Sequence record: OL615011
DNA: 64,000 bases
Reading direction: 5' to 3' (one strand)
DNA from: Shigella phage vB_SboS_Gloob
Shown in pieces: positions 519 to 39,811 of this stretch. The notes under the pieces are model-generated. The model did no database searches. It had not been told where the DNA came from and saw only the letters and a program-made list of their open reading frames with translations. Position numbers and translations under genes: made by a program. Within the stretch, counting starts at the first letter, position 1; every line of letters begins with the position of its first letter.

Positions 519-890
519 TCATGCCCAGGTGGATTTACTTACGGAAAGGTAGTGATCTTTAGACTCGATCAGTTCTTTACCGGATTTGACGATGGCGTCC
601 ATGGAGTAGAATCCAATCTGGAACCCATCTTTCAGGAAGATCGTGTGGTGCATGTGGTCAACTGGCAAACCATTCACTGGGGAATTTTTGAAATTCCAAC
701 CTTCAGCCAGGAATTTTGCGTGGACCGCTTTCATCGTAGCGTCGCGATCACCGTTTGTCATGATACCCATTTCAACGTTGTCTACCAAACCACGGTCAAC
801 AATCTGACCTTCGAGGGTTACAACGCCGAAGCCAAGGGATTCAAGGATAGACATTTCTGGTTTGGTGAAATCTGTTTTGATCGCGTTCAT
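519..890 (-). CDS. hypothetical protein (start moved to the ATG preceded by AAGGA and CTATATC)
   Basis: ORF track 519..911; the track start is the TTG of the upstream TTGAAA element; sigma70-like promoter just upstream. Confidence 0.5.
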   Translation of the reverse strand: MNAIKTDFTKPEMSILESLGFGVVTLEGQIVDRGLVDNVEMGIMTNGDRDATMKAVHAKFLAEGWNFKNSPVNGLPVDHMHHTIFLKDGFQIGFYSMDAIVKSGKELIESKDHYLSVSKSTWA

Positions 891-938
891 GATATAGTTC
901 CTTCGTTTCAAGTTGGTGTCGTACTGCTTATGGAATGA

Positions 939-967
939 AGTATAGGGAAGGATATTGAAGAAGTAAA
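939..967 (-). promoter_or_regulatory. sigma70-like promoter (TTTACT, 17 nt spacer, TATACT), copy 1 of a duplicated cassette
   Basis: Hexamers read on the minus strand upstream of the gene at 519..890; overlaps an upstream hairpin at about 967..982. Confidence 0.45.
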
Positions 968-2938: not shown

Positions 2939-3249
2939 ATATCCTCCAGGTCGTCCCCTACCACAACCATGAATTCTAAGCCCCTGTCCATGATCAAGTC
3001 TATCGCTCTGGTGCTGCCGCTCCCCTGAACACACCAGTATTTGAATGGTCCAAAACGGTGTAGAATCTTGATGATCATCAACTGCATGCTTTTGTGGGCG
3101 TCATTGTAGCGCGACTTGTACTTCTTGGAGAACCATCCGTGGTTCAGGCTTTTGTAACGGTAAAGGAACCACAGGCGAACAGCCTTGTACAAACGCTTTT
3201 TCGCGCCTGTGGAATCCTTTGAAACCCTGATTACTTTGTTCATGATCAA
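2935..3249 (-). CDS. hypothetical basic protein
   Basis: 104-aa ORF; ATGA overlap with the gp46-like gene. Confidence 0.4.
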   Translation of the reverse strand: MIMNKVIRVSKDSTGAKKRLYKAVRLWFLYRYKSLNHGWFSKKYKSRYNDAHKSMQLMIIKILHRFGPFKYWCVQGSGSTRAIDLIMDRGLEFMVVVGDDLEDM

Positions 3250-5582
3250 TCCTTCTTGATAACTTCGGTCAGGCCGTTGCGCAGGCCATAGCGGATGTTG
3301 TGAGGGAAGTACTCTTGGAACTCCTGCTCACGCTGACTGATGACAAACAGGTTGTTCCCGCCGAACTTATGCTTCAGCATCTCAACCGATTCCTGCACCC
3401 CGCGCTCGCTCATGTTCTCAAGGATTTCGTCCAGGACAAACAGGTTACATTGCACCGATGCCTTGAGGTTAGCCACGTCGCGCAGAGCCAGTGTCACAGC
3501 CAGGTTCAGGCGGCTCCGCTGGCCAGTAGACAGGGAGAAGATGCTCTGCCCCTTGCGACCTGCTGCACTCATGGTGATCTCAAAGGTATCGTCAACAACG
3601 ATGTCCAGGAACATGTTGAGGGCTTCAAGATACTCGTTGATCTTGCTATTGAGGAATGGCAAGTACAGGGCGATGATGCGCGCCTTGGTCTGGTCATCCT
3701 TCAAGAAGAACAGCAGGTGCTGTAAGTCCTGGAGTTCCTCATCTGCATCTTCACGGAGTTCATACAGAGCCTCCAGTTCACCTTCCAATGCAGCGATAGA
3801 GTTCTCCAGGTCGGCGGTAGGCGTCGGCTGTACAGCCAGTTTACGCTCCAGATCGGCAATGGACGCCACGAGAGGAGCACGACGGGCTTTCAGCTCGGCG
3901 ATCTTATCATCGACGGCTTTAATCCCGCTGACGGCATTCTCTCGCGTCTGTTGCAGCGACGCAGTGATGTCTTCAAAACGAACGTTCAGCGCCTTGCGGA
4001 TGTCAAGGATCTTCTGTTGGCATTCACGGTTCAGCGAATTACACTCAATCGTGGCCGCTTCATGGAACCCCTGAATGTCACGGTGCAGCTGCTTGATGTT
4101 GTCAACGATTTCGTCGGCCTGCTTGCGCATTGCATCCAGTTCGGCATCTAACACAGCAATGTCAGCAACCAGCTTGTCGTCCTGAGCCTTGTGACCATCA
4201 ATCAGGGCGGTGACATCGGCAGTGACCTTATCCAGCTGATCCAACTTCGCCTGCAGTTCCTGTATCTGAGGGTTGTACTTGCTCTCAATGCGCGCCTTGG
4301 TATCATCAGACACCAGCTGGGTGCATGTTGGGCAAGTCCCCATATCGTGGAAGCGCTTGATGGCCGCTTGATGACCATCCATTTCTGTTTGGAAACGGAT
4401 ACGGAAGTTCTCACCCTGTTGGCGGCGCTGGATAGCAGCGTTCAGAGTGTCCAGGTTGGCGTTGCGTTCGGTGAGCAGGGTGTTCTTGCTCTCGGCTACT
4501 GTAAAGGCGCGGTCGCGCAATACCTGGAGATCATGCTCCGCAGTAGACACTTCGATGCGCTCATAATCGTCAGCCTTGTCCTGAGCGGCATCCTTCACCG
4601 CCTGGATCTTGGTATCAAAGTCTTTCTTGACAGCCTCGATCTCCACCATGGATTCGTCATGAAGGCGGCTTTCCACCGTCTTCATTTCCTGAGTGGCTTC
4701 GAATTCCACGGCAGTGAGACGGGTGCGCTCCTCATTCTGCGCGGCAATGTCAGCGTCCAGCGATACCAGGGCTTCCTGTTGCTGTACAAGGATATCGGCC
4801 GACTGCTGTTGGATAAGGGCATTGGATTGCTCTATCTGCTGCAGCTGCGTCTTCTTGTTGGTGTGGTCAACAACCTTCAACGCACATTCATTCGCGATCG
4901 TGTCCAGCTTTTCGTTCGCTTTCTTGATGGATGCCTTGACATCTTCGTTCATCAGGCTGAAGAAGCCCAAGTCCCAGATAGTCTCCACCATCGCGCGACG
5001 GTCGGCGGTGTACATCTCCGTGAACGGAATGAACTTCTCTTTGCCCAGCACCAGAGAGTTCTCAAACATCTTCTGGTCCACGCCGATGAGGTTCACGATG
5101 TACTTGTTCATGTCGGCTTTGGCTGCTTCATTATCGATCTGCAACCACTTGCCGTCCACCATCTGGTAGACTTCAACAAAGTCAGGTTTAATGCCACGGC
5201 GAACCTTCCATTCGCTACCACGGCAGGCAAACTCCACCTCACCCACACATTCCTTGCGGCTCTGTGAGTTTACCAGGCCTGCCTTCTTCTCCTTCTTACT
5301 GTACGTGTCGTTGTACAGTACGAAGAACAGCAGCCACACCAGCATCGTGGATTTACCCGCGCCGTTATCGTCAGACGTGACGAGGGTAGCCGGGTTGCGC
5401 TGGTAATCAATCTCCATGAACTGATTACCGATGGAGCGGAAGTTCTTGGCGCGGCCTTTGCGGAAGGTCAGTTTGTGCGTAATGTTGTCACGCACTTCAA
5501 ATGGGACTTCGACCTCAACCGGAGTGTCGGCTTCCTTCAAAAGATTGCCAAATTTGGCCAGGATATCTGTGCTCTGAGTCAT
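3246..5582 (-). CDS. 46: recombination endonuclease subunit, Rad50/SbcC-like ATPase (T4 gp46-like)
   Basis: N-terminal Walker A (NGAGKST), long coiled coil with CPTC zinc hook, C-terminal signature LSTGQRSR and Walker B (FVLDE). Confidence 0.85.
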   Translation of the reverse strand: MTQSTDILAKFGNLLKEADTPVEVEVPFEVRDNITHKLTFRKGRAKNFRSIGNQFMEIDYQRNPATLVTSDDNGAGKSTMLVWLLFFVLYNDTYSKKEKKAGLVNSQSRKECVGEVEFACRGSEWKVRRGIKPDFVEVYQMVDGKWLQIDNEAAKADMNKYIVNLIGVDQKMFENSLVLGKEKFIPFTEMYTADRRAMVETIWDLGFFSLMNEDVKASIKKANEKLDTIANECALKVVDHTNKKTQLQQIEQSNALIQQQSADILVQQQEALVSLDADIAAQNEERTRLTAVEFEATQEMKTVESRLHDESMVEIEAVKKDFDTKIQAVKDAAQDKADDYERIEVSTAEHDLQVLRDRAFTVAESKNTLLTERNANLDTLNAAIQRRQQGENFRIRFQTEMDGHQAAIKRFHDMGTCPTCTQLVSDDTKARIESKYNPQIQELQAKLDQLDKVTADVTALIDGHKAQDDKLVADIAVLDAELDAMRKQADEIVDNIKQLHRDIQGFHEAATIECNSLNRECQQKILDIRKALNVRFEDITASLQQTRENAVSGIKAVDDKIAELKARRAPLVASIADLERKLAVQPTPTADLENSIAALEGELEALYELREDADEELQDLQHLLFFLKDDQTKARIIALYLPFLNSKINEYLEALNMFLDIVVDDTFEITMSAAGRKGQSIFSLSTGQRSRLNLAVTLALRDVANLKASVQCNLFVLDEILENMSERGVQESVEMLKHKFGGNNLFVISQREQEFQEYFPHNIRYGLRNGLTEVIKKD

Positions 5583-14937: not shown

Positions 14938-15308
14938 AACGTACCCCCGACAGAGATCAAGAACTCTTCTTCAATGGTCGTGACCGGGCGGCGGTTGCGG
15001 GTTTCGATCATGAAGCCCCAGCCGCCGTCGGCGACGTTGCCAAAGGTCTTGACGCCAAAGGTCTTCTTCCCGTTGGAGCAGGCATAGAAGTCCAGGATGA
15101 ACGGGCTACCCTGATTGTCGATCCCACGGTTTACGCCGTCCGCTACACAGCGCTCAATCATCTTCCCGTTCTTATACAGAACGAGGTCTTGGCCATACGC
15201 CTTGAAAGCATAAACGCCGCTGGTAGACACTCCGGTGATGACAGGAGGAGCGGAAACAGCAGAGAAGGAAGCGCCCAGCAGGGCAACAGCGAGGATTAAC
15301 TTTTTCAT
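14934..15308 (-). CDS. putative secreted protein
   Basis: ORF track 14934..15329; start moved to MKKLILAVALLGASFSAVSA (signal peptide) preceded by AGAG CTATATC. Confidence 0.5.
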   Translation of the reverse strand: MKKLILAVALLGASFSAVSAPPVITGVSTSGVYAFKAYGQDLVLYKNGKMIERCVADGVNRGIDNQGSPFILDFYACSNGKKTFGVKTFGNVADGGWGFMIETRNRRPVTTIEEEFLISVGGTL

Positions 15309-16268: not shown

Positions 16269-18512
16269 TTAGATTTTGATCTCTTTCTCTGCCAGTTCGG
16301 CAGTGACCTTGTACTTCACACCATCCACTTCAACTTCCATGGTGGACTCTTCCAGGTCGAGGTCGGTGAACCAGCCGTGGCCAGCAACGATACCATAAAC
16401 CACTTTAGACAGCGTCTTGTTCAGGGCGCGGACTTCGGTGATGGCCGCCTTGGCAGCAGCGTCGATCCAGTTTTCGATCAGCTGTTTCTGTACGGCTTCA
16501 GGCACGGCAGTGATCGCAGGAGACTTCACGAATGCTTCGTATTCCTTCAGAGCATTGGCGATGAACAAGTCACCCGCATTGAGTTTCTTGTTCTCGGCAA
16601 TCTTCTTCTGTACTGCCGCGATGCTCGGCAGAGAAGACGCTCCAGCGATCTTAACGTTCAGCTCACGGCTCATGTAGACATCCGTGGAGTCCTTCAGTTC
16701 GGTCTTCGGTGAGAAGCCGTAATCACGGATGCCGTAGGAGGACAGGAACTCAGCCGCCTCAGCGCCGTACTGTACTGCCAGGCCTTTGGCGTTGCCTTTG
16801 CCAACCAGTTCATCACGGAAGAACTTCAGCACCTTCTGCTTGCCTTTCAGGGCTTCCAGACGGACATTATCCGCAAAGAACTGAGCAGCACTGATGTTCT
16901 TGACCATGGCGCGGTTGACCAGCGGTACGCTTTCCAGGTTCAGGACAAACACTTCCGGACCACCGAACACATGGACGCCCATCTGGCACAGATTGGTTAC
17001 AACTTCAACATCAGCCCTGAACGGCAGAGTCTTCACGTTGATGATGCCGTCTTTGACGATGGTGTAGTTGCGCCATTGGAAAGTATCCAGTTCTTCAGGC
17101 AGACCGAACTTCTTCTGCACGAACTCCGGAATCGCCACAGTGCCGTGCTGGACAGTGCGTACACTGATATTAGGGCGTTCGGAGTTATAGACCAAATCGC
17201 TGATTGGCACAACACCCAGATCGTTGGTAGGTTCGAACGTCGGGTTCCACTCTTCGTGCTCGGCCAGCTTGAGAGCCAGGGCTTTGCGCTCTTCTTTGGA
17301 CTCGGCGTTCGCGATCTGTTCTGCCAGCTTGTCTTCGGTATCGTCCAGTTTCTGAGCCGTACCGCGACCGATGCTCTTGTAGGAGAACATAGGATGTTTG
17401 GTGGCAACACACACGCCAGCTTCAGCCAGATACGTCAGCACGTCAACGACGGTCGTCGCATCTTCAGCCGGGACCAGGTCATAGTCAATACCGTCAACGC
17501 CGCGCAGCTGGTCATCAACGATGGCCTGGGTCAGATCAACTTTGATGTTGGAGTAGTCCTGCTTGGTGAAGCAGTTGCTGTACTGTTTGATGAAGCGGAC
17601 GTCGCCCGTTTTCTTCAGTGCAGCCCACACCAGGTCTGCGTCCATGATGTGTACGCCGTAGAACGCCAGCACGTATGCCGCCTGGATGTCCGCCAGCGCA
17701 TCAAGTTGGTCGATCATGTTAGGATTGACGACCCACAGCTTCGTGACGCTCTCAGGGATGCTCACGTGGCCAACGGGATGCTCTGCGTCTGCCTGTACCG
17801 CCAGAACAGTTGCTACGCCGTTTTCAACGTAGATGGCATGATCATACAGCAACGGAACATCAACAACCACCTTCGGAACTGAGGACTTCAGCACGGTTTC
17901 CAGCTCGGCCTGATACTCAACCTGACCTTCGGCAAACACGTGAGTCGCACCGGAGCGCTCAGACATCAGAGCCAGCAGTTCGCGGTTACAGTACCAGCCG
18001 TATTCGATGAAAGTGACGTTGTCGAACGCGGAAGGAAGTTTTTCGGCGGTGTCCAGGATCTCATTGGAGCGCCAGCAGTTGTCATAACCATCGGTCATGA
18101 ACGCCAGGTTGTTGACGTAGCCGGGTTTCTTCAGGTCACGCGCAGTATCCATCGCCAGTTTCAATGGCTCAACAAAACCAGTACAGCCGGACGGTTGTAG
18201 GAAGCGGTCGATCAGTTTGTTCAGCTCGCTCAGGTCAGATGCTGCACTAACCTGACGGCCAGCGAACACAGTACCAAAGTCGCCACGGGATGAGAAATAC
18301 AGAACACTCACAGTGTCTTCCGGTTTCACCAGAGAAGGCAGGTTCTCCTTCAGATGCTTACGGACTTCAGGGAGCGCCCGGTACATTGAACCGGAAATGT
18401 CTACAACGATTACATGGTTGGACGGAGCAGCAGTCGCAACCACATTCTTAAATTCTAATGATTCAATCATTGTTCTCTTCGCCTTTTGCGTAAGGGTTAA
18501 GTTCAGACTCAT
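16269..18512 (-). CDS. large protein with N-terminal von Willebrand factor A (vWA) domain
   Basis: MIDAS motif VVVDISGSM near the N-terminus; 747 aa. Confidence 0.5.
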   Translation of the reverse strand: MSLNLTLTQKAKRTMIESLEFKNVVATAAPSNHVIVVDISGSMYRALPEVRKHLKENLPSLVKPEDTVSVLYFSSRGDFGTVFAGRQVSAASDLSELNKLIDRFLQPSGCTGFVEPLKLAMDTARDLKKPGYVNNLAFMTDGYDNCWRSNEILDTAEKLPSAFDNVTFIEYGWYCNRELLALMSERSGATHVFAEGQVEYQAELETVLKSSVPKVVVDVPLLYDHAIYVENGVATVLAVQADAEHPVGHVSIPESVTKLWVVNPNMIDQLDALADIQAAYVLAFYGVHIMDADLVWAALKKTGDVRFIKQYSNCFTKQDYSNIKVDLTQAIVDDQLRGVDGIDYDLVPAEDATTVVDVLTYLAEAGVCVATKHPMFSYKSIGRGTAQKLDDTEDKLAEQIANAESKEERKALALKLAEHEEWNPTFEPTNDLGVVPISDLVYNSERPNISVRTVQHGTVAIPEFVQKKFGLPEELDTFQWRNYTIVKDGIINVKTLPFRADVEVVTNLCQMGVHVFGGPEVFVLNLESVPLVNRAMVKNISAAQFFADNVRLEALKGKQKVLKFFRDELVGKGNAKGLAVQYGAEAAEFLSSYGIRDYGFSPKTELKDSTDVYMSRELNVKIAGASSLPSIAAVQKKIAENKKLNAGDLFIANALKEYEAFVKSPAITAVPEAVQKQLIENWIDAAAKAAITEVRALNKTLSKVVYGIVAGHGWFTDLDLEESTMEVEVDGVKYKVTAELAEKEIKI

Positions 18513-18779: not shown

Positions 18780-20444
18780 TCAGATTTGTGATGCCAATTC
18801 TGCCACCAGAGGAGCAGCACGAACACGCGCATCTTCCAGAGTCTGGGTGTTGAAGAACTTGCCGTCACGATACACCAGCTGGTGCTGGTTGTCGGCGTCT
18901 TGCACCTGATCAAAGGTGATACCGTCAACCAACACTAGTTTACCCTGAGAGTCTTTAATGACTTTAAGGAAACCACGCGCAGACTTTTTAGTCCCGCCTT
19001 TGTCGGTCTTCGGCTCTTTGAAGATCTCACGGAATTCGCCGTTCACTTTACCAGCCGTTGCTTTCACTGCCGTGCCAGTACTGTCACGGGTGTTCATCTG
19101 GTAGGTGTAGGAACCGATACCGAACACCACGTTGATGGAAGCAAAGTTCCGGCCAGCCAGACGACCAAAGATCTGGTCTTCACGTGCCAGGGTGATGGAG
19201 TCGCCGTAAATCAGACCGATGTGTTCGTCCAACAGGAAGTGACCAGTTTCGGTCTGGGTCCCGCCAAAGATCTCCCACAGGCGCTGGATAGAGCCGACCG
19301 CTTCTGAACGACTGATGATATTGCGGTCATCTGCCATCAGAGAGTTGATCGTGCCTTCGCCTGTAATCAGGTGATAGGTGTTCGTCTCTTCGATGTGAAT
19401 GACTTCGGTGCTGCTAGACACGCCGCTGATGTTCAGCATAGCGCGGTCTTTGAACCCCTCAATGCGGTAGCCGCCGACGATATGAACTGGGTCGCCCGAG
19501 TCAGGGCGGATCACGACTTTGCCGTTGCGTGCCATGATAATATCTTTCAGGCGCGGCAGATAGTCGTCGATGACCTGCCAGTAATCCCACGCATCAGACA
19601 CGATGCTGACGATGCCATCAGGATACACGTCCTGCACCAGGCGGCGGAAGGTTTCGAATTCACCATCCTTCGTACCCATACACATCACGGCGTGTTCGGT
19701 AGCCGCAACAGAACCAGCAACGACATAGTCTTCGTCGATGTCTGCGCCATAATACTCTTCTACGAAGTCCAGGGCAGGGTTGGTATCGGTGCCTTTGAAG
19801 AACACCAGATGACCGGAACCGGAAGACGCCGCGTCATGCCACCCACTCATACCACGGAAGGAGAAGTCGTGGCCTTGGTAGTCGATGAACCAATGGTCCG
19901 GCGACACGCCTGTAGCGAGGGCAGCTTTCACCATCAGTGCCTTGTAATGCAGAGCGATGGTGGCGTTCGTCATCGGCTTCCAGATCTCAGAGCTGAACAC
20001 AGTCTCCAGATAGTTGGTCAGCCAGTAGAACTCCGGCAGGGTGTTGAACATCACATACACCGGAACGCCATATGGGCACATGGTGCCTTCAGGCAGAGCA
20101 CGGACTTCGATAGGCAGGTAGCCGAGGTCATGCAGGGCTTCAATATGCTCTGTGCCGACGCGGCCTGGACCCAGGACTTTGTTCATGCGACGGGCATACT
20201 TCTTCAACACCTTGGCCTTTGGGCGCTGGAAGAATGCTTCGTCAAACAGTTCGTGGAACCAGGTCATGAAGCCCTGGATGCCCCAGACCACCACGCCGTT
20301 CTTCGGCAGGTGAGAGTTGAACAGTTTGTTGGAGCGCGGAGTTCCGTTGGAGAACACCAGCTCGCTGCCTTCAGGGAACTGATAGATGTGCCCTGATTTG
20401 TAGAAGTCGATTGCATGGATTGGATCTAAGTGGCGCATGCTCAT
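18780..20444 (-). CDS. nicotinamide phosphoribosyltransferase (NAMPT/NadV) family enzyme; candidate nicotinamide ADP-ribose transferase
   Basis: Collinear with human NAMPT: LPIEVRALPEG...EFYWLTNYLETV, HDFSFRG, GHLVFFKGTDT, VIRPDSGDP. Confidence 0.85.
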   Translation of the reverse strand: MSMRHLDPIHAIDFYKSGHIYQFPEGSELVFSNGTPRSNKLFNSHLPKNGVVVWGIQGFMTWFHELFDEAFFQRPKAKVLKKYARRMNKVLGPGRVGTEHIEALHDLGYLPIEVRALPEGTMCPYGVPVYVMFNTLPEFYWLTNYLETVFSSEIWKPMTNATIALHYKALMVKAALATGVSPDHWFIDYQGHDFSFRGMSGWHDAASSGSGHLVFFKGTDTNPALDFVEEYYGADIDEDYVVAGSVAATEHAVMCMGTKDGEFETFRRLVQDVYPDGIVSIVSDAWDYWQVIDDYLPRLKDIIMARNGKVVIRPDSGDPVHIVGGYRIEGFKDRAMLNISGVSSSTEVIHIEETNTYHLITGEGTINSLMADDRNIISRSEAVGSIQRLWEIFGGTQTETGHFLLDEHIGLIYGDSITLAREDQIFGRLAGRNFASINVVFGIGSYTYQMNTRDSTGTAVKATAGKVNGEFREIFKEPKTDKGGTKKSARGFLKVIKDSQGKLVLVDGITFDQVQDADNQHQLVYRDGKFFNTQTLEDARVRAAPLVAELASQI

Positions 20445-21295
20445 TTTACACGTCCTGTATTTTCAGTTTTGAAAGGAAGGCCGTCGGTGGTGATATTCTC
20501 CCACCAGACAGTGTCGGCATACACAGCATCATAGATCCCGTCGAAAACAGAGAGACCTTTGCTGAAGATGCCATGGGTGACGAAGAGCGTCATGTGCTTA
20601 GGCTCGTGCTTCTGAAGCTCTTTACCCAGCTCAACAAACGTGCGCCCGCCATCGCAGATATCATCAACCACCACCAGATAGCGGTCTTTGATCAGTTCAG
20701 GGTTTGTAATGCTCACCCCAATGATCTCACCAGTCTTGGTGTCACGGTTCTTGTGGCCGTAGACAACAGGAACACCATCCAACGACAGGCTGAGGGCTTC
20801 GGTCTTCTTCGCCGCGCCGCCGTCAGGGGCTACTAGCACAGCGTTGTTCCCACGGATGAACCAGCCCAGATACTGCCGCACGATGTAATCTTGCGGGACA
20901 ACATGGACGTTGTTGATCAGAGAAGACACGACATGGCTGTGAGGGTCTTTGATCGCCACGCGGTCAAAGTTCATGCTATTGATGAACTCAGCCGCCCACT
21001 TCACGGACAGAGGCTCGCCGAAGTCGCAATGGCGGTCCTGGCGAGCATACGGGAAGTAAGGGATATACGCATGGAAGGTCGTCAGACGGTCCACGTTACC
21101 CAGGCCGCGCACGGCGTTTACCAGAAGCGCCAGCTCAATGAAGTCGGCTGATGATTTGATGTGGGCATCAATCACAACCGTCTGAATCTTACCGACAGGA
21201 ATACCAGCCTTTTGGATCTTGATATGTTCCTCACCACCTGGGAAGGTGAAGTGTTTGTAGAACACATCTTGGTCGTTCAATTTCAAACGAAACAT
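20441..21295 (-). CDS. ribose-phosphate pyrophosphokinase (PRPP synthetase) family enzyme; candidate ADP-ribose pyrophosphate synthetase
   Basis: IPYFPYARQDRH and VVVDDICDGGRT match Prs motifs; ATGA overlap with the NAMPT-like gene. Confidence 0.8.
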   Translation of the reverse strand: MFRLKLNDQDVFYKHFTFPGGEEHIKIQKAGIPVGKIQTVVIDAHIKSSADFIELALLVNAVRGLGNVDRLTTFHAYIPYFPYARQDRHCDFGEPLSVKWAAEFINSMNFDRVAIKDPHSHVVSSLINNVHVVPQDYIVRQYLGWFIRGNNAVLVAPDGGAAKKTEALSLSLDGVPVVYGHKNRDTKTGEIIGVSITNPELIKDRYLVVVDDICDGGRTFVELGKELQKHEPKHMTLFVTHGIFSKGLSVFDGIYDAVYADTVWWENITTDGLPFKTENTGRVK

Positions 21296-24378: not shown

Positions 24379-25599
24379 TTATTCAGGTTTCTTCAAACGG
24401 TCCAGCAAATTGACGGAACCACGTTTGAGCACGACTTCATCACAGCGCTTTTTGTATTCCCCGCCGCCGTCATAGCTGACCTTGCCCCGAGGTTTTTCAC
24501 CGCGCCCAACCGCCTCAACACAGCGAGTGTACTTGCTCAGTTCACAGAACATGTTCTCCAGCTGCATGACGTTCATGCACTGATCTACAGGCTCTTCGGC
24601 TGACCAGAATTGCTCGCGAACATACCCATATTGGGAGTATACTGCGTCCTGATTATCCCGTAGCCAGAATATGCATTCTTCGTGAGTCATGCCGTCTTTG
24701 TTCAGGAACAGCAGATCAATACCTGCGCGACAGCCCGGTCCGGCTATCGTGAAGTGGTTCTCACTGAACGGATAACCAGGCATGTACGTGAAGTCAACCC
24801 AGATCTGGTATGCCAGGAATGGACCAAGACCTTCGATGTCGTCGTACATGCGCTGGTATACTTCCAGAGGAGTACCAAGGCGCAGCAGGTCATGGAAGTA
24901 ATTTGGATACTTGTTGACGAATGCCTTCAGGGAACGGATGACACGCATTGGCATGTACGGCTCCCAGCCTTCGATGGTGTAGAAGTCCGGCTCCGCTTCA
25001 GCGATGGCCTTGGCTTCCTTATAATCCATGTTCTGGGTCGAACCATCTTTGCAGATCAGGTTCACCATCATCCCACCGAAGCGCTGCTCTTTGTGGTTGA
25101 CAACCAGCTCAGGGAAAGCCAGGCATTGCTTCAGACCGCCCGTGTTGAAGGCATTGGTGAATACTTTACCGCCGTCGGCCTCGAACTTCTGAAGTCGTTC
25201 GCGGGTTGCGTCAAGGTTGATCTTGGCGAATTCTTTGATCGTCATCGCGCCGCCGATAGCCTGGATCGGATCCCAGAGGTTGAACATGCGGAACAGCACG
25301 CAGTTAAACATCTTGTCTGCCATACCCAGAGCATCGTTGTTGACGATGTTGTTGATCAGGTTAAGAGACTGCCTGTCGTGCTCTCTCCGGACGTTACAGA
25401 ACTTGACCTGCCGTAGTATAGGATTATTCGTCCAAGGGGCAGGAAGACGCTGGACGTCCTTCTTGACGTGGATCTTATAGCGCTCGCTCATCCATTCGTA
25501 AGACAGGCGGGTATGGGTCGGACTGAGAACCGGTTTGGCCGACTTTATCTTTTCTTCACGGACACCGCAGTACGGGACGTCCAGGGCTTTATCTTTCAT
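24379..25599 (-). CDS. hypothetical protein (406 aa)
   Basis: Long ORF, function not recognised. Confidence 0.5.
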   Translation of the reverse strand: MKDKALDVPYCGVREEKIKSAKPVLSPTHTRLSYEWMSERYKIHVKKDVQRLPAPWTNNPILRQVKFCNVRREHDRQSLNLINNIVNNDALGMADKMFNCVLFRMFNLWDPIQAIGGAMTIKEFAKINLDATRERLQKFEADGGKVFTNAFNTGGLKQCLAFPELVVNHKEQRFGGMMVNLICKDGSTQNMDYKEAKAIAEAEPDFYTIEGWEPYMPMRVIRSLKAFVNKYPNYFHDLLRLGTPLEVYQRMYDDIEGLGPFLAYQIWVDFTYMPGYPFSENHFTIAGPGCRAGIDLLFLNKDGMTHEECIFWLRDNQDAVYSQYGYVREQFWSAEEPVDQCMNVMQLENMFCELSKYTRCVEAVGRGEKPRGKVSYDGGGEYKKRCDEVVLKRGSVNLLDRLKKPE

Positions 25600-25668: not shown

Positions 25669-26538
25669 TTAATCGATACGGGACAGCTGAGTGATAGATG
25701 ATTGCACTGGGCTGGCCACATAGATACGGACGTTGGCTTTCCACGTACCCCACAGGAGAGGCAGAGTCGGGAAGTTTACTTCGTTCAGCTCAAATACAGG
25801 GATGTAACTCTCCAGCGCTTCCCCAGAATACGCCTGGAAGCCCATCTCGGCGTACTGAAGGATCTCTTCTGGGAAATCGAAAGGTGCGTATGCAACGCCC
25901 ATGGATTCGTTCATGCCCATTCGACCCGCAGTGGCAGTGCCCGTCAGAATGATTTCGGTGATCTGGCGCTTAGGCTCGGTGGTCAACATATCAGAGAAGT
26001 CCGGCTCTTTGAATGCTGCCATGTTCTTCAGGAACTTGCCAGCCGGGTACTCTTTGCCGTCGACGGTGATGGTGTCTACCACTTTGATGCACGCCTGAGG
26101 GAATTCCCCTTCGATGCGTAGACTTTCGCGTGGGAAGCCTTTGTTGTAGTAGTAATCCAGTGCAGGCACAACTTCACCTTCATTACGGATGAACTTGCTC
26201 ATGTTGGAAGCATAAACGCGCTGTAGGCACTCATCGCCGTCGAAACCAGCAATGTGAGCCACGCCGTCATTGACGGTGGTGATATCACCCTGAGCGTCCA
26301 TGATGTCCTTCAGGATTTCCTGAATGGTTCTGGTCTGGTAAGGTTCTTGTTTAGGTGTGAGCACCAGATCCAGTTTCACATCGCAATCGTAGTACGCCGC
26401 CTCCAACAGTTCGCGGGTCTCTTCCAGCACCAGTTTCGCCTGATTGCGAATCTTACCAAAGTCGGGCGATGTGACATCGCCCTTTGCATTACCGAAAGCC
26501 AGATTCAGATTCACGTTCTTAGAAAATGTAGTTGTCAT
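25669..26538 (-). CDS. hypothetical protein (289 aa), possible MazG-like N-terminal helix
   Basis: LVLEETRELLEAA acidic helix; weak. Confidence 0.4.
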   Translation of the reverse strand: MTTTFSKNVNLNLAFGNAKGDVTSPDFGKIRNQAKLVLEETRELLEAAYYDCDVKLDLVLTPKQEPYQTRTIQEILKDIMDAQGDITTVNDGVAHIAGFDGDECLQRVYASNMSKFIRNEGEVVPALDYYYNKGFPRESLRIEGEFPQACIKVVDTITVDGKEYPAGKFLKNMAAFKEPDFSDMLTTEPKRQITEIILTGTATAGRMGMNESMGVAYAPFDFPEEILQYAEMGFQAYSGEALESYIPVFELNEVNFPTLPLLWGTWKANVRIYVASPVQSSITQLSRID

Positions 26539-29553: not shown

Positions 29554-29931
29554 ATGAAACAGTTCGTAGGATTATATGCGGTCGGATGCAGTAAGCCAGA
29601 CGCCATCCTCACCGCAGGGCAATTTGTCACAGGCACCCCAGTTTATCTGGCGCAGCTGGCGTCAGACAAGAACTTACCATCGGAGCCGCGATTTGTCCCT
29701 CTGGGTTTGATGGCAGGCCTGAAAGTTGGTCTGTATGTCGGTGTGGTGACGTTTGAAAACGGCGTCGAAGCGAAGGTTCTGCCATTTAAATTGGGCAGCG
29801 AACAAATGCTGAAGGACACTATCAGTGAACACCTGAACGCACAATGTCTGGTTTCTCTGGACAAATTGTTCGGCACAGTATCTGATGAAGGCGAGGCCAC
29901 CCCCGCCTATGTGAATCAAGATCAGTCGTGA
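29554..29931 (+). CDS. hypothetical protein
   Basis: 125-aa plus-strand ORF starting MKQFVGLYAV. Confidence 0.5.
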   Translation: MKQFVGLYAVGCSKPDAILTAGQFVTGTPVYLAQLASDKNLPSEPRFVPLGLMAGLKVGLYVGVVTFENGVEAKVLPFKLGSEQMLKDTISEHLNAQCLVSLDKLFGTVSDEGEATPAYVNQDQS

Positions 29932-31430
29932 TTACCCAGCGCCACCTTCATGAACTCCACAGGGTGGCGCTCTGTCAGGTAGAACTTGTAACGCTCATGA
30001 GAGTGCCTGATAGCGTGGTTCGTGCTGGCGTTGTACGACACATCATCCACTAAGTCCCATATCCACGCGACGTCCTTGGAGGAGTGCTGACGCATCAGAC
30101 GACCCAATGTCTGTATGACGCGGATATATGACTTGCTCGGGTGCGCCAGTACAAGGTGGTGTAGCTTCTTGATTGACACACCCTGTTGCATTGTCCCGTA
30201 TGAAGCCAACAACGTGATATCCTCTCCATCCTCCATCGCTTTCTGTATGCGGCGGCGGTCTTCGATCTTCACTTCCCCGTTGATGACAAACACGTTGGGC
30301 TTGACTGCGCTCAGCATATCGTACACAACCATCATGTGGGCGTCAATACGCTCGAACATGATGGCCACGTTCCCTTTCAGATTCAGTGCCATCTTGGCGA
30401 TCAGTTCGTTGCGGGACTGGTGTGTAATAAGGTATTCTATTTCCTTGGCATAATCCCCGTCCAGACCAACAGCATCCGCCGGAGTGTGCTTCAGCTGAAT
30501 CATCTTCACTTTGATGTCAGTGGCGTACCCGAGATTGATAAGGTCGCGAGCTGTGATGATCTTATGGTACGCCCCGAAGTGAGCCACCACCTGAAGCCCG
30601 GCAACTTTGGTGTTCGACAGCGTACCTGTAACCCCCAGGCGCTGGTCGGCGTAGATGCAGTTGTTGAGGATGTAGGACAGTTTCTCAGACTTGGAGGTAT
30701 GCACTTCATCCACCACGATGTCACCGAACTGGTGGAACCATTCTTTCGGCTGGTCTTGAATGCCCTGCCATGTACTGATGACGATTGGTTTGCTGATTTC
30801 CTTTGTCGCGCCCTCAAAGATCAACTGAGTGTTGACAACGGGCTTCCAATCACTGCCGTGTGCGTACTCTTCAAAGTTGTCGTACAGCTGAGTGACCAGG
30901 TGAATCGACGGCACCACGATAAGCGTCTTCAGAGGACTTTCGAGAGCTTCTCTGCGCTGCCTGTAGTACCGCGCCATGACATACAGAATAAAGGACTTAC
31001 CAGCACTTGTAGCCAGTTCACAGACGCATCTGGTTTGACGCATAGCCTTGGCGATGGTGTCGTACTGATAGTCACGGGTCTCAGCATCGATGTATTCGTG
31101 ATTTTCGGTGCGGATCTTTGGATGGAGACTGTCGATGAAGTCATGGATTTCTTGATCTGGGATGTCCTGAATGTACTTCAGAGCCGGATCCAGTTCAATG
31201 GTGTATTTGTTGTTCTTGCAGAACTTGAACACCTCAAACAGTAGGCCGATATCAATCAGGCCGGATGACTTGGTGAATAAGCGAACAACCCCGTCCCATT
31301 TAGAGAAGGGGTTGGGAACGAAGTTCGGGTCTTCGAATTTGAAGTAGTCATTCAGCTCTTCCCTGATAGAAAGATCTGCGATGCAACGCATGCGGACTTC
31401 GTTAACCTTAACAATCTGAATGTCTGCCAT
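29922..31430 (-). CDS. uvsW: UvsW-like SF2 DNA helicase
   Basis: Collinear with T4 UvsW (ATSAGKS, DEVH, WQGIQDQPKEWFHQFG, KKLHHLVLAHPSKSYIRVIQTLGRLMR); ORF track 29922..31523, start moved to MADIQIV. Confidence 0.9.
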   Translation of the reverse strand: MADIQIVKVNEVRMRCIADLSIREELNDYFKFEDPNFVPNPFSKWDGVVRLFTKSSGLIDIGLLFEVFKFCKNNKYTIELDPALKYIQDIPDQEIHDFIDSLHPKIRTENHEYIDAETRDYQYDTIAKAMRQTRCVCELATSAGKSFILYVMARYYRQRREALESPLKTLIVVPSIHLVTQLYDNFEEYAHGSDWKPVVNTQLIFEGATKEISKPIVISTWQGIQDQPKEWFHQFGDIVVDEVHTSKSEKLSYILNNCIYADQRLGVTGTLSNTKVAGLQVVAHFGAYHKIITARDLINLGYATDIKVKMIQLKHTPADAVGLDGDYAKEIEYLITHQSRNELIAKMALNLKGNVAIMFERIDAHMMVVYDMLSAVKPNVFVINGEVKIEDRRRIQKAMEDGEDITLLASYGTMQQGVSIKKLHHLVLAHPSKSYIRVIQTLGRLMRQHSSKDVAWIWDLVDDVSYNASTNHAIRHSHERYKFYLTERHPVEFMKVALGNHD

Positions 31431-33885: not shown

Positions 33886-34614
33886 TTACTTCAGGGCGCT
33901 CTTCAGATTATCAGAACCTATGTTGTTGATAACGCCACCAGCGCACAGGTCTTTAGCCCACTCAGACAGTACATTGGCGAACGAGAAGTTCAGACACTTG
34001 CTGACCATGTCTTGGATGTGGGCTAACTCTGAGGCAATACCATTGGCGATATCCTGACCGATTTGCGCCACCTGAGCAATAGCATCGTTGATATATCCGG
34101 TAACTTCGGCGGCCAGCGCCTGGATCTTTGCTAGGCCAGCGCTTACGCCCTGCGCAACTAACTCAGCCAGTTCGGCCATCTTGGCAGTAACAGTGCTGAG
34201 AGCACCCTCCATAGCCCCGATCCACTGGCGCCCAAGAGTCTGTATGACGCCGAAGGCATTGTTGATCAGATCACAGTTGGTCGGCTCGCGCTCGATTGAC
34301 TTCAGGCCAGATTTGTACGACACGGAAGTCCCGATGCGGGAATACGCTTCGTTCACAGTCTGATCACCATAGTTGTTCAGCGTGGTGAGGCTGGTGTCGG
34401 CAGAGGTGAACATCGTGTTCGTTTCATTGAGTTTGGCTGTGGTTAGACCGCCTGCCGTCAGAGCGCCCTGGATTTGCGTATTTCCGGTGTTTGCCAGTGC
34501 AGCTGTAGTCGCCTTGCCGCTGGTGATTAAACCCTGAGACGTGCTGCTGAGGGACGGGAGAGGATTGTTAAATGCGTTACCCTGCTCAAGGGCGTCATAG
34601 ATCTGTGCGTTCAT
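33886..34614 (-). CDS. hypothetical protein, probable late gene
   Basis: Late-promoter-like motif upstream; alternative ATG at 34629. Confidence 0.5.
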   Translation of the reverse strand: MNAQIYDALEQGNAFNNPLPSLSSTSQGLITSGKATTAALANTGNTQIQGALTAGGLTTAKLNETNTMFTSADTSLTTLNNYGDQTVNEAYSRIGTSVSYKSGLKSIEREPTNCDLINNAFGVIQTLGRQWIGAMEGALSTVTAKMAELAELVAQGVSAGLAKIQALAAEVTGYINDAIAQVAQIGQDIANGIASELAHIQDMVSKCLNFSFANVLSEWAKDLCAGGVINNIGSDNLKSALK

Positions 34615-34636
34615 AGAAAATACCCCCATGGATGAT

Positions 34637-34648
34637 GGGGGTATTTAG
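34637..34648 (-). promoter_or_regulatory. late-promoter-like motif CCTAAATACCCCC within a 12-bp inverted repeat
   Basis: Promoter motif is one arm of the palindrome AAATACCCCCAT / ATGGGGGTATTT that also contains the first ATG. Confidence 0.45.
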
Positions 34649-34861
34649 GGGATCATGGCAGTTTGTAAACGAAGTTGGACCAGAACTTGCGAGCGAACTT
34701 CTTGGCATAGACCTTCCAGTCGGCGTATTCGCCCTCCTTCAGGTCATTGTAGGTCTCGAACCCTACTGCTCCCAAGAAGTACGCCGTGAAGATATAGCAG
34801 AACAGATTGACGACAAACATGATGTATCTCCGCTGTGTGAACTCAAATTATTTATGGTATG

Positions 34862-35284
34862 TTATAAAAGGCGCTTGGTCTTCGGCTTGCCCATTAGAGT
34901 GATGTCCACAGGGAGGCCAGTTTTCTTGCAACGGTTGATCATATCCAGAGTGCCAGTAGACGAGCCGTCCCACATCGCAATCGGATACACTTCCAGCCTG
35001 GTCTGCCTGACGAGTTCCAATGCCTTGTCTAACATGTCCTGATTGCGTTTGTTACCCATCCCTTTCCCATACCTTTCATAATAGCTCGGAGGGATTGGCA
35101 TAGGAGTGATATGAACATAATTGATTTCAGCCCAATCACGGCAAATCGTGTCGACACCCGTGGCCTCACCCTCGATCAACGTATAGACTTCATGAGGATC
35201 GAGAAGTTCGTCCAGCTTGGCGAATACCTTATCCCGCTCGGTGATTGAGCGGGAACCTGTAACGAGTACGATATACTTCTTCAT
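34862..35284 (-). CDS. SLOG-type Rossmann-like protein (YpsA/DprA-like, DUF2493-like)
   Basis: VLVTGSRS ... GEATGVDTICRDWA motif pattern; ORF track 34862..35329, start moved to MKKYIV. Confidence 0.4.
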   Translation of the reverse strand: MKKYIVLVTGSRSITERDKVFAKLDELLDPHEVYTLIEGEATGVDTICRDWAEINYVHITPMPIPPSYYERYGKGMGNKRNQDMLDKALELVRQTRLEVYPIAMWDGSSTGTLDMINRCKKTGLPVDITLMGKPKTKRLL

Positions 35285-35289
35285 AGAAC

Positions 35290-35634
35290 TCACAGCGCCC
35301 CAAGATTGCCGATGACATACAGGGAGCACAGAGGAGTGCCTGACGAACGGGGTTCGATTGTCATCCCGCTCAGGCGGATCAGTTCCAGTAAGCCGTCAGT
35401 GGTTTGATACGCGCGTGTCGAACCGTTCGGACGGTATAGCTCCAGCTCGGTTCGCCCTTCCTTTAATGCGTTACGAATGCGAGTGAACACACTGTGGCCG
35501 CCGAACTTCTGCTTCAGAAGGTCCAGCTTGGTGACCAGACGGCGCGATTTGCGCGGCTTACGCTTGTTTGGCTTTTCTAATTTGACGATGTGGGGGATCT
35601 CCACACGGTTGGTCATTTTGGTATCGCATGCCAT
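35290..35634 (-). CDS. hypothetical basic protein
   Basis: 114-aa ORF. Confidence 0.4.
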   Translation of the reverse strand: MACDTKMTNRVEIPHIVKLEKPNKRKPRKSRRLVTKLDLLKQKFGGHSVFTRIRNALKEGRTELELYRPNGSTRAYQTTDGLLELIRLSGMTIEPRSSGTPLCSLYVIGNLGAL

Positions 35635-35703: not shown

Positions 35704-36012
35704 TCAAGAAAAATTGAACTTGTTGTCAACGAAGGTCAGGCGGGAGCATACTTCTTCAACTGCATCAACCATCATAAAATCTTTGAATGCTTCATGCAAG
35801 GCATTCAGGAAGGAAGCTGGGACTAAACCACAAGCCGGGTTGTCAAACAGAGCTGAAGCAACTACTGCGTTGTAAGTTGAATCAGGAGTAGCAGACTGGC
35901 ACAACATCATGGCTTCAGCGTTCTTTACCGCATGGTATTTAAAGGTGTTAACCACAGTGGTTTTGTTGGATTTTGCCAGTTGAGCTTCGAATTGTTCTTT
36001 GGTGATTGTCAT
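35704..36012 (-). CDS. hypothetical protein
   Basis: ORF track 35704..36033; same upstream cassette as the gene at 519..890. Confidence 0.5.
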   Translation of the reverse strand: MTITKEQFEAQLAKSNKTTVVNTFKYHAVKNAEAMMLCQSATPDSTYNAVVASALFDNPACGLVPASFLNALHEAFKDFMMVDAVEEVCSRLTFVDNKFNFS

Positions 36013-36059
36013 GATATAGTTCCTTCGCTTCAAGTTGGTATTGTGTTGCTTGTCCTTGA

Positions 36060-36087
36060 AGTATACGGGGTTTATTGAAGAAGTAAA
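36060..36087 (-). promoter_or_regulatory. sigma70-like promoter (TTTACT, 16 nt spacer, TATACT), copy 2 of a duplicated cassette
   Basis: Hexamers read on the minus strand; about 70 bp of similarity with the cassette at 893..982. Confidence 0.45.
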
Positions 36088-36112
36088 CCCCGTTTATTGA
36101 ATAAATTTAAAA

Positions 36113-38479: not shown

Positions 38480-39811
38480 TTAGAACAGACCTTTGATCAG
38501 ACCTTTACGGAAGTAAGGGTTGCTGTCCTGAGCGATACCATCGGCAGTCACGTAAACCTGTGGGTCCTGGTTCGCTGGGATCTGTACGAATGGGTTCGCG
38601 CAGATGCCGTAACGAGTTTTGAACGCCATACGTGGGCTGAAGGTGGTTTCACCCTGGGTGCGGTACATTTCCAGCGGCACATACGGCGCGAAGAAGATAC
38701 CAGCATCCAGCGCGGTTGCGCCTTTGTACGCCAGGGTGATGTATTCAGCAACCGCATACGGGTCGATGTATACACGCATACCGTTGGACAGTACACCAGC
38801 GAAGGTCTGGCCAGTTGGGTCGATCGCCAGCTTGGTGTTTTCCTGCAGCGCCGGAGCGTAATCCAGCATGCCGGACATTGCCAGAGCGGATGCTACGTTC
38901 GGAGAACACAGAACACGGTTGCCTTTACCACGACGGGTGTCAACACCGATGCCGTTCGCTTCAACTTCCAGCATGAAAGTCATGTACTTCCATTTTTCCA
39001 GCGCCCAACGACCGGAGATGTCGGTGGAGATGTCTACAACGCCGTTTGCGCCGAATTTTTTGAAGCGTACTGCACTGAAGTTCATGGTACGGATGAACTC
39101 ACGGTTCATTTCCGCCTGAATTTCAGTTACCATCACGTCGGACAGGATGCTGTCAACGTCTTCGCCGTGGATCGCCATCATGTCCTGGCGCAGTTCATGG
39201 CTGTAGTCAGCGTACAGGCCACGAGACTTCGCAGTCACGGTTGCTTTCTGAACGGTGATACCAACACGCGCCCATGGGTTGGTGGTGGTGCCCAGCAGTT
39301 CAGCGTCGGTGGTTGGCATGCCTTTACCGATGGTGGTCACGCCAGCGCCGGAACCTTCGATCTCGGCCTGAGTAAAGCCAGATGGATCGCCAGCCTGTAC
39401 AGTACCGTCACCAGAGTAGCCGGAATCAGCTTCCTGCATGAACAGTTCTTTACGGGACTGTTGGGTGTTGGATGAGTCGCCGACGCCCTGGCGAGCACGC
39501 AGAGCAAAGATCTGACCGTCAGGACCAGACAGCGGCTGTACGCCGAAGAAGTCCATCGCGATGTTGATCGGAGCCAGACGTTTTGCCATGTCGATCAGGA
39601 CTGGCTGCCATTTGCCCACAGAGTTGTTCACAGAACCAGGAGCGTCAGATTCGCCCAGGTTTTTGGCGTTCCACTCAGCCTGGTTTTGCAGCAGGCGGAC
39701 AGCAACGTTTTCGGCAGAAAGCGGCTGGATACTTTCAGATTCTTTCTGAAGAACTGGCAGCCACTGCTCGCGCATTTGTTCGGTAACAAGTTTCTTAGCC
39801 ATGATGGTCAT
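38480..39811 (-). CDS. 23: major capsid protein (T4 gp23-like)
   Basis: Strong C-terminal collinearity with T4 gp23 (FAGVL...RVYIDPYA, YKG...DAGIFFAPYV, KTRYGI.ANPF). Confidence 0.92.
   Translation of the reverse strand: MTIMAKKLVTEQMREQWLPVLQKESESIQPLSAENVAVRLLQNQAEWNAKNLGESDAPGSVNNSVGKWQPVLIDMAKRLAPINIAMDFFGVQPLSGPDGQIFALRARQGVGDSSNTQQSRKELFMQEADSGYSGDGTVQAGDPSGFTQAEIEGSGAGVTTIGKGMPTTDAELLGTTTNPWARVGITVQKATVTAKSRGLYADYSHELRQDMMAIHGEDVDSILSDVMVTEIQAEMNREFIRTMNFSAVRFKKFGANGVVDISTDISGRWALEKWKYMTFMLEVEANGIGVDTRRGKGNRVLCSPNVASALAMSGMLDYAPALQENTKLAIDPTGQTFAGVLSNGMRVYIDPYAVAEYITLAYKGATALDAGIFFAPYVPLEMYRTQGETTFSPRMAFKTRYGICANPFVQIPANQDPQVYVTADGIAQDSNPYFRKGLIKGLF

Follow-up and report, generated by a model that had tools for sequence, protein, structure and literature searches.

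A YspA-family SLOG protein of Shigella phage vB_SboS_Gloob and its possible role as a DNA-binding accessory

The SLOG gene and its protein

Shigella phage vB_SboS_Gloob is an Agtrevirus of the family Ackermannviridae, and we analysed a stretch of 64,000 nucleotides of its DNA (sequence record OL615011; hereafter the window). On the minus strand, at 34862..35284, lies a gene whose product almost certainly belongs to the YspA/DUF2493 branch of the SLOG fold. Its open reading frame (ORF) begins with an ATG at 35284 and runs for 140 codons plus the stop codon, which is included in the coordinates. This ATG is the start position in 26 full-length homologues and in the annotation of Salmonella phage SKML-39. 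We rejected a GTG at 35329, which would add 15 residues (155 in total) and would run into the upstream gene. Over 2.6 kb around the gene, the DNA is 94.9% identical to that of SKML-39, and the protein itself is 100% identical to SKML-39 gp029 (YP_007236124.1). It reads MKKYIVLVTGSRSITERDK...LIEGEATGVDTICRDWAEIN...WDGSSTGTLDMI...LMGKPKTKRLL, with a Rossmann core at residues 1-130 and a basic tail, GKPKTKRLL, at residues 132-140. Both strings on which a preliminary description of this DNA had based its identification, VLVTGSRS and GEATGVDTICRDW, are present in the 140-residue protein.

The family assignment is carried by several kinds of evidence. PF10686 is the only Pfam family above threshold for the protein (43.1 bits against a gathering cut-off of 28.2 bits, E=3.8e-11, residues 5-58); this model, formerly DUF2493, is named YAcAr, for 'YspA, cpYpsA-related SLOG family', after the classification of Burroughs et al. 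(2015). The same label is precomputed for 30 of 34 close homologues, all 108 sampled relatives score above its threshold, and UniRef names the identical protein 'YspA cpYpsA-related SLOG domain-containing protein'. The NCBIfam search gave no match, and sequence searches of the PDB returned only noise, whether started from the protein alone or from a profile of its 27-sequence clade. The AlphaFold2 model, built with 27 homologues, is confident (mean predicted local distance difference test score, pLDDT, 92.9; predicted TM-score, pTM, 0.86) and forms a three-layer alpha/beta Rossmann sandwich, in which five parallel strands alternate with helices. Its best Foldseek matches in the PDB are DprA structures (3uqz, 4ljk and 5mll), including those of Streptococcus pneumoniae and Helicobacter pylori, and ShosA (8zva), together with the Chlamydomonas molybdenum cofactor carrier protein (2iz7), a type-II LOG (5wq3, rank 31) and the N-terminal domain of TRPM2; solved SLOG members are matched with probabilities of 0.96-1.00. 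The predicted viral structures that it matches are DUF2493/YspA proteins, from many phages and from giant viruses. Pfam score, predicted fold and structural matches thus agree with the SLOG-type, YpsA/DprA-like Rossmann protein proposed in the preliminary description, and the profile searches that it had suggested as a safeguard against an unrelated fold led back to SLOG. The identification is correct but not new: public databases already list the protein and its domain label, and the anti-defence idea attached to it has been published.

The family is large. In a profile search of 1.84 billion cluster representatives (50% identity), 24,167 relatives were recovered at E<=0.001 and 5,806 at E<=1e-10, most of them stand-alone proteins of 115-140 residues, and relatives were detectable by tblastn in 555 of 50,697 phage records. 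The Gloob protein resembles other YspA/DUF2493 members in size (about 120-140 residues), in standing alone and in its G..R, GxAxGxD, RN and GT motifs, whereas the Ackermannviridae clade departs from the family in having a longer central helix and an additional, near-invariant basic tail, LMGKPKTKRLL.

The ORF at 34862..35284 is a genuine gene, far beyond chance, given the PF10686 score, a match to PHROG 289 (E=6.4e-39), the confident model and a proportion of non-synonymous differences (pN) far below that of synonymous ones (pS). Compared with SKML-39, the gene shows two synonymous differences and no non-synonymous ones; compared with the orthologue of Kuttervirus PhiSH19, pS is 0.75 (synonymous sites being saturated) and pN 0.165. 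This pattern of substitutions indicates strong purifying selection.

The last eleven residues, LMGKPKTKRLL, are nearly invariant in Ackermannviridae proteins whose identity otherwise drops to 44%, and the basic tail is missing from more than 90% of the wider YspA family. In the AlphaFold2 model the tail has low confidence, and it is predicted to be disordered. Being near-invariant in the clade, rare outside it and poorly modelled, the tail bears the signature of a putative short linear motif or nucleic-acid-binding tail. It also changes the predicted charge of the protein, whose isoelectric point (pI) is 8.5 with the tail and 5.7 without it; the median pI of the YspA family domain is about 9. 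Among the other proteins of the window and of the SKML-39 stretches read (record positions 15107..159624), the only tail resembling KTKRLL is that of a gp33-like co-activator: SKML-39 gp106 (locus 18129..18374), a gp33-like late promoter transcriptional regulator, ends in ...LKSKKLV, compared with ...KTKRLL here (34862..34888). This likeness of sequence may be due to chance, or may be a lead to a common docking motif. A hub-binding motif shared more widely is unsupported, as neither the DNA polymerase nor the gp55-like sigma factor carries such a tail.

Two names given to relatives of this protein do not fit it. PHROG 289 is labelled 'GTP-binding domain', a label without support here, as the protein has no P-loop. 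The PHROG profile (500 positions) is chimeric, with the SLOG domain at 20-146 and the DUF7217 virion protein at 258-500. The chimera likely stems from a fused gene model, such as the 475-residue protein A0A0N7CDB8 of Salmonella phage 38 (in BFVD), which spans both SLOG and DUF7217 (window equivalent 33886..35284). As the three ORFs of the window lie in three different frames, we rejected a true fusion of SLOG and virion protein here, and the Salmonella phage 38 fusion is probably a faulty gene model. The name 'GTP-binding domain' has meanwhile spread from the PHROG 289 chimera into RefSeq annotations. The second name, 'putative transmembrane domain', is given to the orthologue in the annotation of LIMEstone1 (Limestonevirus) and clashes with the confident soluble Rossmann model.

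A small cassette within the morphogenesis region

Between the major capsid gene (38480..39811) and the gene of a virion protein (33886..34629) lies a row of small minus-strand ORFs, which bears out the earlier placement of the SLOG gene in a block of small genes. Immediately upstream of it is a gene for a protein of 114 residues (35290..35634, minus strand; phrog_4663), whose stop codon lies 5 nt before the SLOG ATG, and the two genes appear to be translationally coupled. The same gene directly abuts the SLOG gene in Kuttervirus, Taipeivirus and Limestonevirus. In the alignment, the 114-residue protein consists of an N-terminus that is variable, disordered and rich in Arg/Lys, and of an alpha/beta domain of about 75 residues that is strongly conserved, with an invariant RPNGS and one invariant Cys. 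Its AlphaFold2 model has a pLDDT of 74.9; the protein matches no Pfam family, and the best hit of its fold search was not significant (E=0.056), the non-significant likenesses being to small alpha/beta folds of the IF3-C, KH, R3H and Alba types. A third gene (35704..36012, minus strand; phrog_24635) stands first in the row and is variable, its place being taken by other small genes in SKML-39, PhiSH19 and LIMEstone1. For this gene, a ribosome-binding site, GAAGGAAC, followed by an ATG at 36012 was preferred over a TTG at 36033.

At the head of these three genes, a hairpin overlaps a promoter-like TTTACT-N16-TATACT element on the minus strand (36057..36098, 42 nt; AATAAACGGGGTTTACTTCTTCAATAAACCCCGTATACTTCA), where a promoter scan gave a match at 36087..36060. 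The core of the element, from the hairpin through TATACT, is identical in the Agtrevirus, Limestonevirus, Kuttervirus and Taipeivirus sequences that were read, despite the saturation of synonymous sites in the adjacent genes, and the LIMEstone1 annotation calls the equivalent site a 'putative early promoter'. In the window there are two occurrences of TTTACT-N16-18-TATACT, where 0 were expected, and two of the box TTTACTTCTTCAATA, where 0.08 were expected. The second TTTACTTCTTCAATA...TATACT copy (939..967, minus strand) lies upstream of a minus-strand ORF at 519..911. The element at 36057..36098 may represent a phage-specific class of promoter, or a combined terminator and promoter.

Six nucleotides after the SLOG stop codon starts a late-promoter-like box, CATAAATA (34849..34856, minus strand), which is found at the same place in LIMEstone1, where it is annotated as a 'putative late promoter'. 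The box precedes a 55-residue ORF with a hydrophobic N-terminus (34653..34820, minus strand; phrog_4845) and the virion protein gene, and thus sets the cassette apart from the virion-protein genes; the 55-residue ORF probably belongs to a separate late unit. The virion protein (33886..34629, minus strand; 247 residues) is a DUF7217 protein (Pfam PF23854, E=1.7e-98) that lies outside the function of the SLOG protein, and its LIMEstone1 orthologue is annotated as a 'confirmed structural protein' of the virion. A GC-rich hairpin, AATACCCCCATCATCCATGGGGGTATT (about 34612..34645, minus strand), extends over the start of the DUF7217 gene. The annotations of LIMEstone1 and Ag3 call this hairpin a terminator or stem-loop, and a start codon is an odd place for a terminator-like structure. 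Searching the window for the T4-type late promoter TATAAATA gave one unrelated match only, and a generic scan of the window for promoters and terminators did not rise above background. From this arrangement, the SLOG gene appears to close a small non-structural cassette set within the morphogenesis region, and it is from the predicted promoters that we infer when this cassette would be expressed.

The cassette region is widely conserved. The SLOG protein is found at 60% identity or more in 262 phage records, compared with 270 for the neighbouring DUF7217 protein at the same threshold and 271 for the DNA of the matching region. Because these counts are comparable, they suggest that the SLOG gene may be close to universal in Ackermannviridae, the similar totals being the whole basis of this statement. 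One gene order is common to Agtrevirus, Limestonevirus, Kuttervirus and Taipeivirus: the major capsid gene, small genes, the 114-residue gene, the SLOG gene, the 55-residue ORF and DUF7217, followed by a gene on the opposite strand, a tail completion gene, uvsY, an exonuclease gene and uvsW. The last three genes lie 2-4 kb from the SLOG gene.

Kinship with DprA and genomic partners of the family

Comparison with 140 distant relatives shows that G10, R12, G39, A41, G43, D45, W51, A52, G73, G77, R80, N81, M84, A103, G111 and T112 are invariant or nearly so, as are positions W69 and A76, at which Ackermannviridae depart from the family with Y and M, respectively. The family motifs G-x-R, GxAxGxD, W..YG.xAG.xRN..M and G-T are thus all found in the Gloob protein, with two conservative departures, Y69 and M76. 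In the model, G10-S11-R12 follows strand 1, G39-x-A41-x-G43-x-D45 follows strand 2, R80-N81 lies in a long helix and G111-T112 follows strand 4. Only five polar residues (R12, D45, R80, N81 and T112) are invariant or nearly so in the YspA family. Position 114, within G-T-L-D-M in this protein, is D, H or N across the family. As this sole candidate acid varies, which argues against a LOG-type catalytic acid, we infer that the SLOG protein would be a binding module and not a LOG-like hydrolase.

Judged from profiles and predicted structure, DprA is the nearest characterised relative of the YspA family, because three comparisons converge on it. When a profile of 108 family sequences was compared with the PDB, H. 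pylori DprA came first (E=0.016), G-S-R being aligned with DprA G50-T51-R52 and GxAxGxD with DprA GGALGVD. Among the same 108 relatives, sub-threshold cross-matches to Pfam DprA numbered 41 (best 5.3e-07), against five to cpYpsA, two to YpsA and one to LOG. In PADLOC, relatives matched ShosA and PsyrA weakly and ThsA never. The Gloob protein itself has no match to DprA/Smf (PF02481) at E<=1, such matches being seen only below threshold in its relatives; nevertheless, DprA provides its best solved-structure match and has the G-S/T-R, GxAxGxD and R-N motifs in common with it.

These motifs have a known role in DprA. In the structure of H. pylori DprA with single-stranded DNA (ssDNA), a pocket that accepts a single base of ssDNA is made up of two motifs, 'G-S/T/A-R' and 'F/L/Y-x-x-R-N/D' (PMC3950713), and the R52E and R143E substitutions lower the affinity for ssDNA 315-fold and 173-fold, respectively (PMC3950713). 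In the SLOG protein, G10-S11-R12 is aligned with the first motif and R80-N81 is present for the second, with G77 in place of the aromatic residue at position -3. Across the YspA family, the arginine of G-x-R and the R-N pair are invariant, whereas the aromatic residue is not kept.

Genomic partners of YspA genes in unrelated phages point in a similar direction. The YspA gene lies directly upstream of dda in a KVP40-like phage and directly follows ninB in a D3-like Pseudomonas phage. In a Rhizobium phage it overlaps a superfamily 2 (SF2) helicase gene, with genes for a beta clamp and a RecB-type nuclease alongside; in a Queuovirinae phage it has the clamp gene on one side and that of DNA polymerase on the other; and in a Jedunavirus it follows a gene annotated 'DNA polymerase'. 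Fusions tell of comparable partners: ICP1 HelB is a superfamily 1B (SF1B) helicase with a C-terminal DUF2493, DciA-YspA fusions are on record, and SLOG domains fused to HNH, 3'-5' exonuclease, superfamily 1 (SF1) helicase and guanylate kinase have been described (PMC9503650). ICP1 HelB, the SF1 helicase-DUF2493 fusions and the KVP40-type YspA-dda pair all couple this domain to a Dda-type helicase, whereas in Gloob the gene stands alone and the nearest helicase gene, a uvsW-like one (29922..31430), is 3.4 kb off. In cluster A mycobacteriophages, a PRTase-CE-like gene pairs with a YspA gene near a DnaB-like helicase gene, for example in Mycobacterium phage Smeadley (locus 3248..4363). This pair resembles the phosphoribosyltransferase (PRTase) toxin ShosT and its DprA-like antitoxin ShosA, which binds ssDNA and RecA, with the difference that the mycobacteriophage pair is phage-encoded and has a minimal YspA domain. 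We also surveyed IMG/VR loci found from a 5-sequence sub-alignment (115 large neighbours), among which DNA polymerase A, DNA methylases, 5'-3' exonuclease, ribonucleotide reductase, uracil-DNA glycosylase and SF1 helicase recur.

A candidate single-base binding module and its alternatives

Sequence, structure and gene context all point more towards DprA and DNA metabolism than towards LOG hydrolases or the SLOG domain of ThsA, which binds cyclic ADP-ribose (cADPR). The reading that we favour, with a probability of only about 0.4, is that of a non-catalytic, DprA-type module which binds one base or one nucleotide and has an accessory part in the replication or recombination of phage DNA. In this tentative scheme, the protein would be a stand-alone, minimal five-stranded Rossmann module, whose conserved loops would form a pocket for one nucleobase or nucleotide. 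The pocket would grip ssDNA, or a nucleotide attached to DNA, by taking in one base, as the Rossmann domain of DprA does, and the disordered basic tail GKPKTKRLL, specific to the Ackermannviridae lineage, would aid binding. Expression would come from a small cassette of its own, which also encodes the coupled partner with its basic N-terminus. DprA-like use of the pocket, DNA as the ligand, the lack of catalysis and the part played by the tail are all deduced from the comparisons above.

Several observations weigh against this reading. The profile match to DprA is marginal, at E=0.016, TM-scores normalised on DprA reach only 0.33-0.41, and the aromatic residue of the DprA F/L/Y-x-x-R-N motif is replaced by a glycine, G77. 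With about 140 residues, compared with about 205 for the Rossmann domain of DprA, the SLOG protein is without the extended sheet, the SAM and C-terminal domains, and the dimerisation and RecA-binding surfaces; without its tail, its core is acidic. In Ackermannviridae the gene sits amid small genes of the morphogenesis region and adjoins no replication gene, and no single dominant partner was found among the 115 large neighbours of the IMG/VR survey. Three of the 150 best relatives (P0086, P0134 and P0156) are giants of 1082-1411 residues that carry two or three YspA domains, DUF4326 once or twice and, except in P0134, a DarT1-associated NADAR domain. Those who defined the family read its fusions to nucleic-acid enzymes as 'sensor' fusions and predict ligands derived from ADP-ribose (PMC9503650). 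Finally, the literature that we searched contained no experiments on YspA-family proteins, viral ones included.

Some of these points lend themselves to a counter-defence role of the kind raised in the preliminary description, in which the SLOG pocket would sequester a free signal or toxin derived from ADP-ribose, such as a cADPR isomer, or cleave its ribosyl-adenine bond, and thereby blunt Thoeris-like or other defences based on nicotinamide adenine dinucleotide (NAD+). We regard this role as rather doubtful, even though Iyer, Burroughs and Aravind predict just that for viral YpsA-like SLOG domains (PMC9503650) and published Macro/NADAR fusions and neighbourhoods, along with the co-occurrence of Macro, NADAR and Nudix in DNA viruses, would fit it (PMC9503650, PMC7824862). 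The giants uniting NADAR-DarT1, DUF4326 and YspA domains favour it too, as do one Tad3 Thoeris inhibitor and one Acb3 CBASS inhibitor among the IMG/VR neighbours, and the early annotation of the cassette-head promoter-like site in LIMEstone1 would suit the timing. A further argument comes from the possible NAD+ module noted in the preliminary description, which is indeed present at 18780..21295 on the minus strand. It consists of adjacent genes for a Nampt-like phosphoribosyltransferase of the NAPRTase family (18780..20444, 554 residues) and a phosphoribosyl pyrophosphate (PRPP) synthetase (20441..21295, 284 residues), which constitute a partial NAD+ salvage module; no nicotinamide mononucleotide (NMN) adenylyltransferase was seen among the neighbours of this interval that were scanned. 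However, the module is about 14 kb from the SLOG gene, in a different gene block, and no product named Macro, NADAR, Nudix or NMNAT occurs in the SKML-39 stretches read (record positions 15107..159624), although a comparison of product names only is weak evidence. The SLOG domain of Thoeris ThsA, a member of the same superfamily, sets the example of a signal derived from NAD being bound by such a domain without catalysis, but the Gloob protein has no fused effector domain, and ThsA is absent both from the top 50 PDB fold matches and from the PADLOC matches, in which DprA-type proteins do appear. With PF10686 as its only Pfam match above threshold, the protein shows no homology to characterised inhibitor families, such as the sponges Tad1, Tad2, Tad3, Acb2 and Acb3; the Tad3 and Acb3 models are in the library searched and were matched only by neighbours in other loci. 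The cleaving variant is further opposed by the variability of the would-be catalytic acid and by the distance in sequence from LOG-type hydrolases (1 of 108 cross-matches). In addition, its gene count, which is like that of a core virion gene, its synteny and its purifying selection would be unlike those of patchily distributed anti-defence genes.

The same pocket could instead recognise an abnormal nucleotide within ssDNA, either a base ADP-ribosylated by a DarT-type toxin or the hypermodified thymidine of the phage itself, and then recruit or protect, which would link the DNA reading with the ADP-ribose one. The pocket of DprA takes in a single flipped base (PMC3950713). The phage encodes a 5-hydroxymethyldeoxyuridine (5-hmdU) DNA kinase (24379..25599, minus strand; PF18723, E=8e-82), which marks the thymidine-hypermodification pathway of ViI-like phages, so that it hypermodifies thymidine. 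The gene that comes next in SKML-39 (window 25669..26538) is labelled there as a MazG-like pyrophosphatase, but has no Pfam match. In the giant relatives, YspA is fused to NADAR of the DarT1-associated type, a type that removes ADP-ribose from guanine in ssDNA. Yet this reading is deduction throughout, the family is present in many phages without known DNA modification, and in the SKML-39 stretches read no product name points to a NADAR or macro partner; we consider it quite unlikely. A related and equally improbable proposal is that viral YspA is a minimal DprA-like 'one-base gripper', which would recognise damaged or ADP-ribosylated bases in phage ssDNA, such as those made by DarT-type toxins, and shield them or pass them on to repair or hydrolase partners, its KTKRLL tail docking to a replication or transcription hub in Ackermannviridae. 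Least credible to us is a LOG-like N-glycosidase acting on free nucleoside monophosphates, which would adjust the pool of nucleotides to the needs of a phage whose DNA is modified. The LOG family of 'lysine decarboxylase-like' phosphoribohydrolases (PF03641) has the same fold, with 5wq3 among the matches, the G-T-x-D segment resembles the LOG GGxGTxxE, and the phage carries extensive nucleotide-metabolism genes. Against this, the SLOG protein matches neither the PGGxGTxxE motif nor the Pfam model of LOG, nor any NCBIfam model, its family shows virtually no sequence cross-match to LOG, and the position of the catalytic Glu is not conserved, the acidic residue being out of register as well as variable.

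YspA/DUF2493 is among the larger phage-associated domain families without a tested function. Once known, whether it grips DNA or binds immune signals would annotate thousands of phage and giant-virus genes, and the answer would settle a published prediction on NAD+-centred conflict between viruses and their hosts. If the one-base gripper were real, it would be a counter-defence factor acting at the level of DNA, distinct from the known small-molecule sponges. The Gloob copy is a convenient test case, as a conserved gene in a small, defined cassette of a well-studied group of Salmonella, Escherichia coli and Shigella phages.

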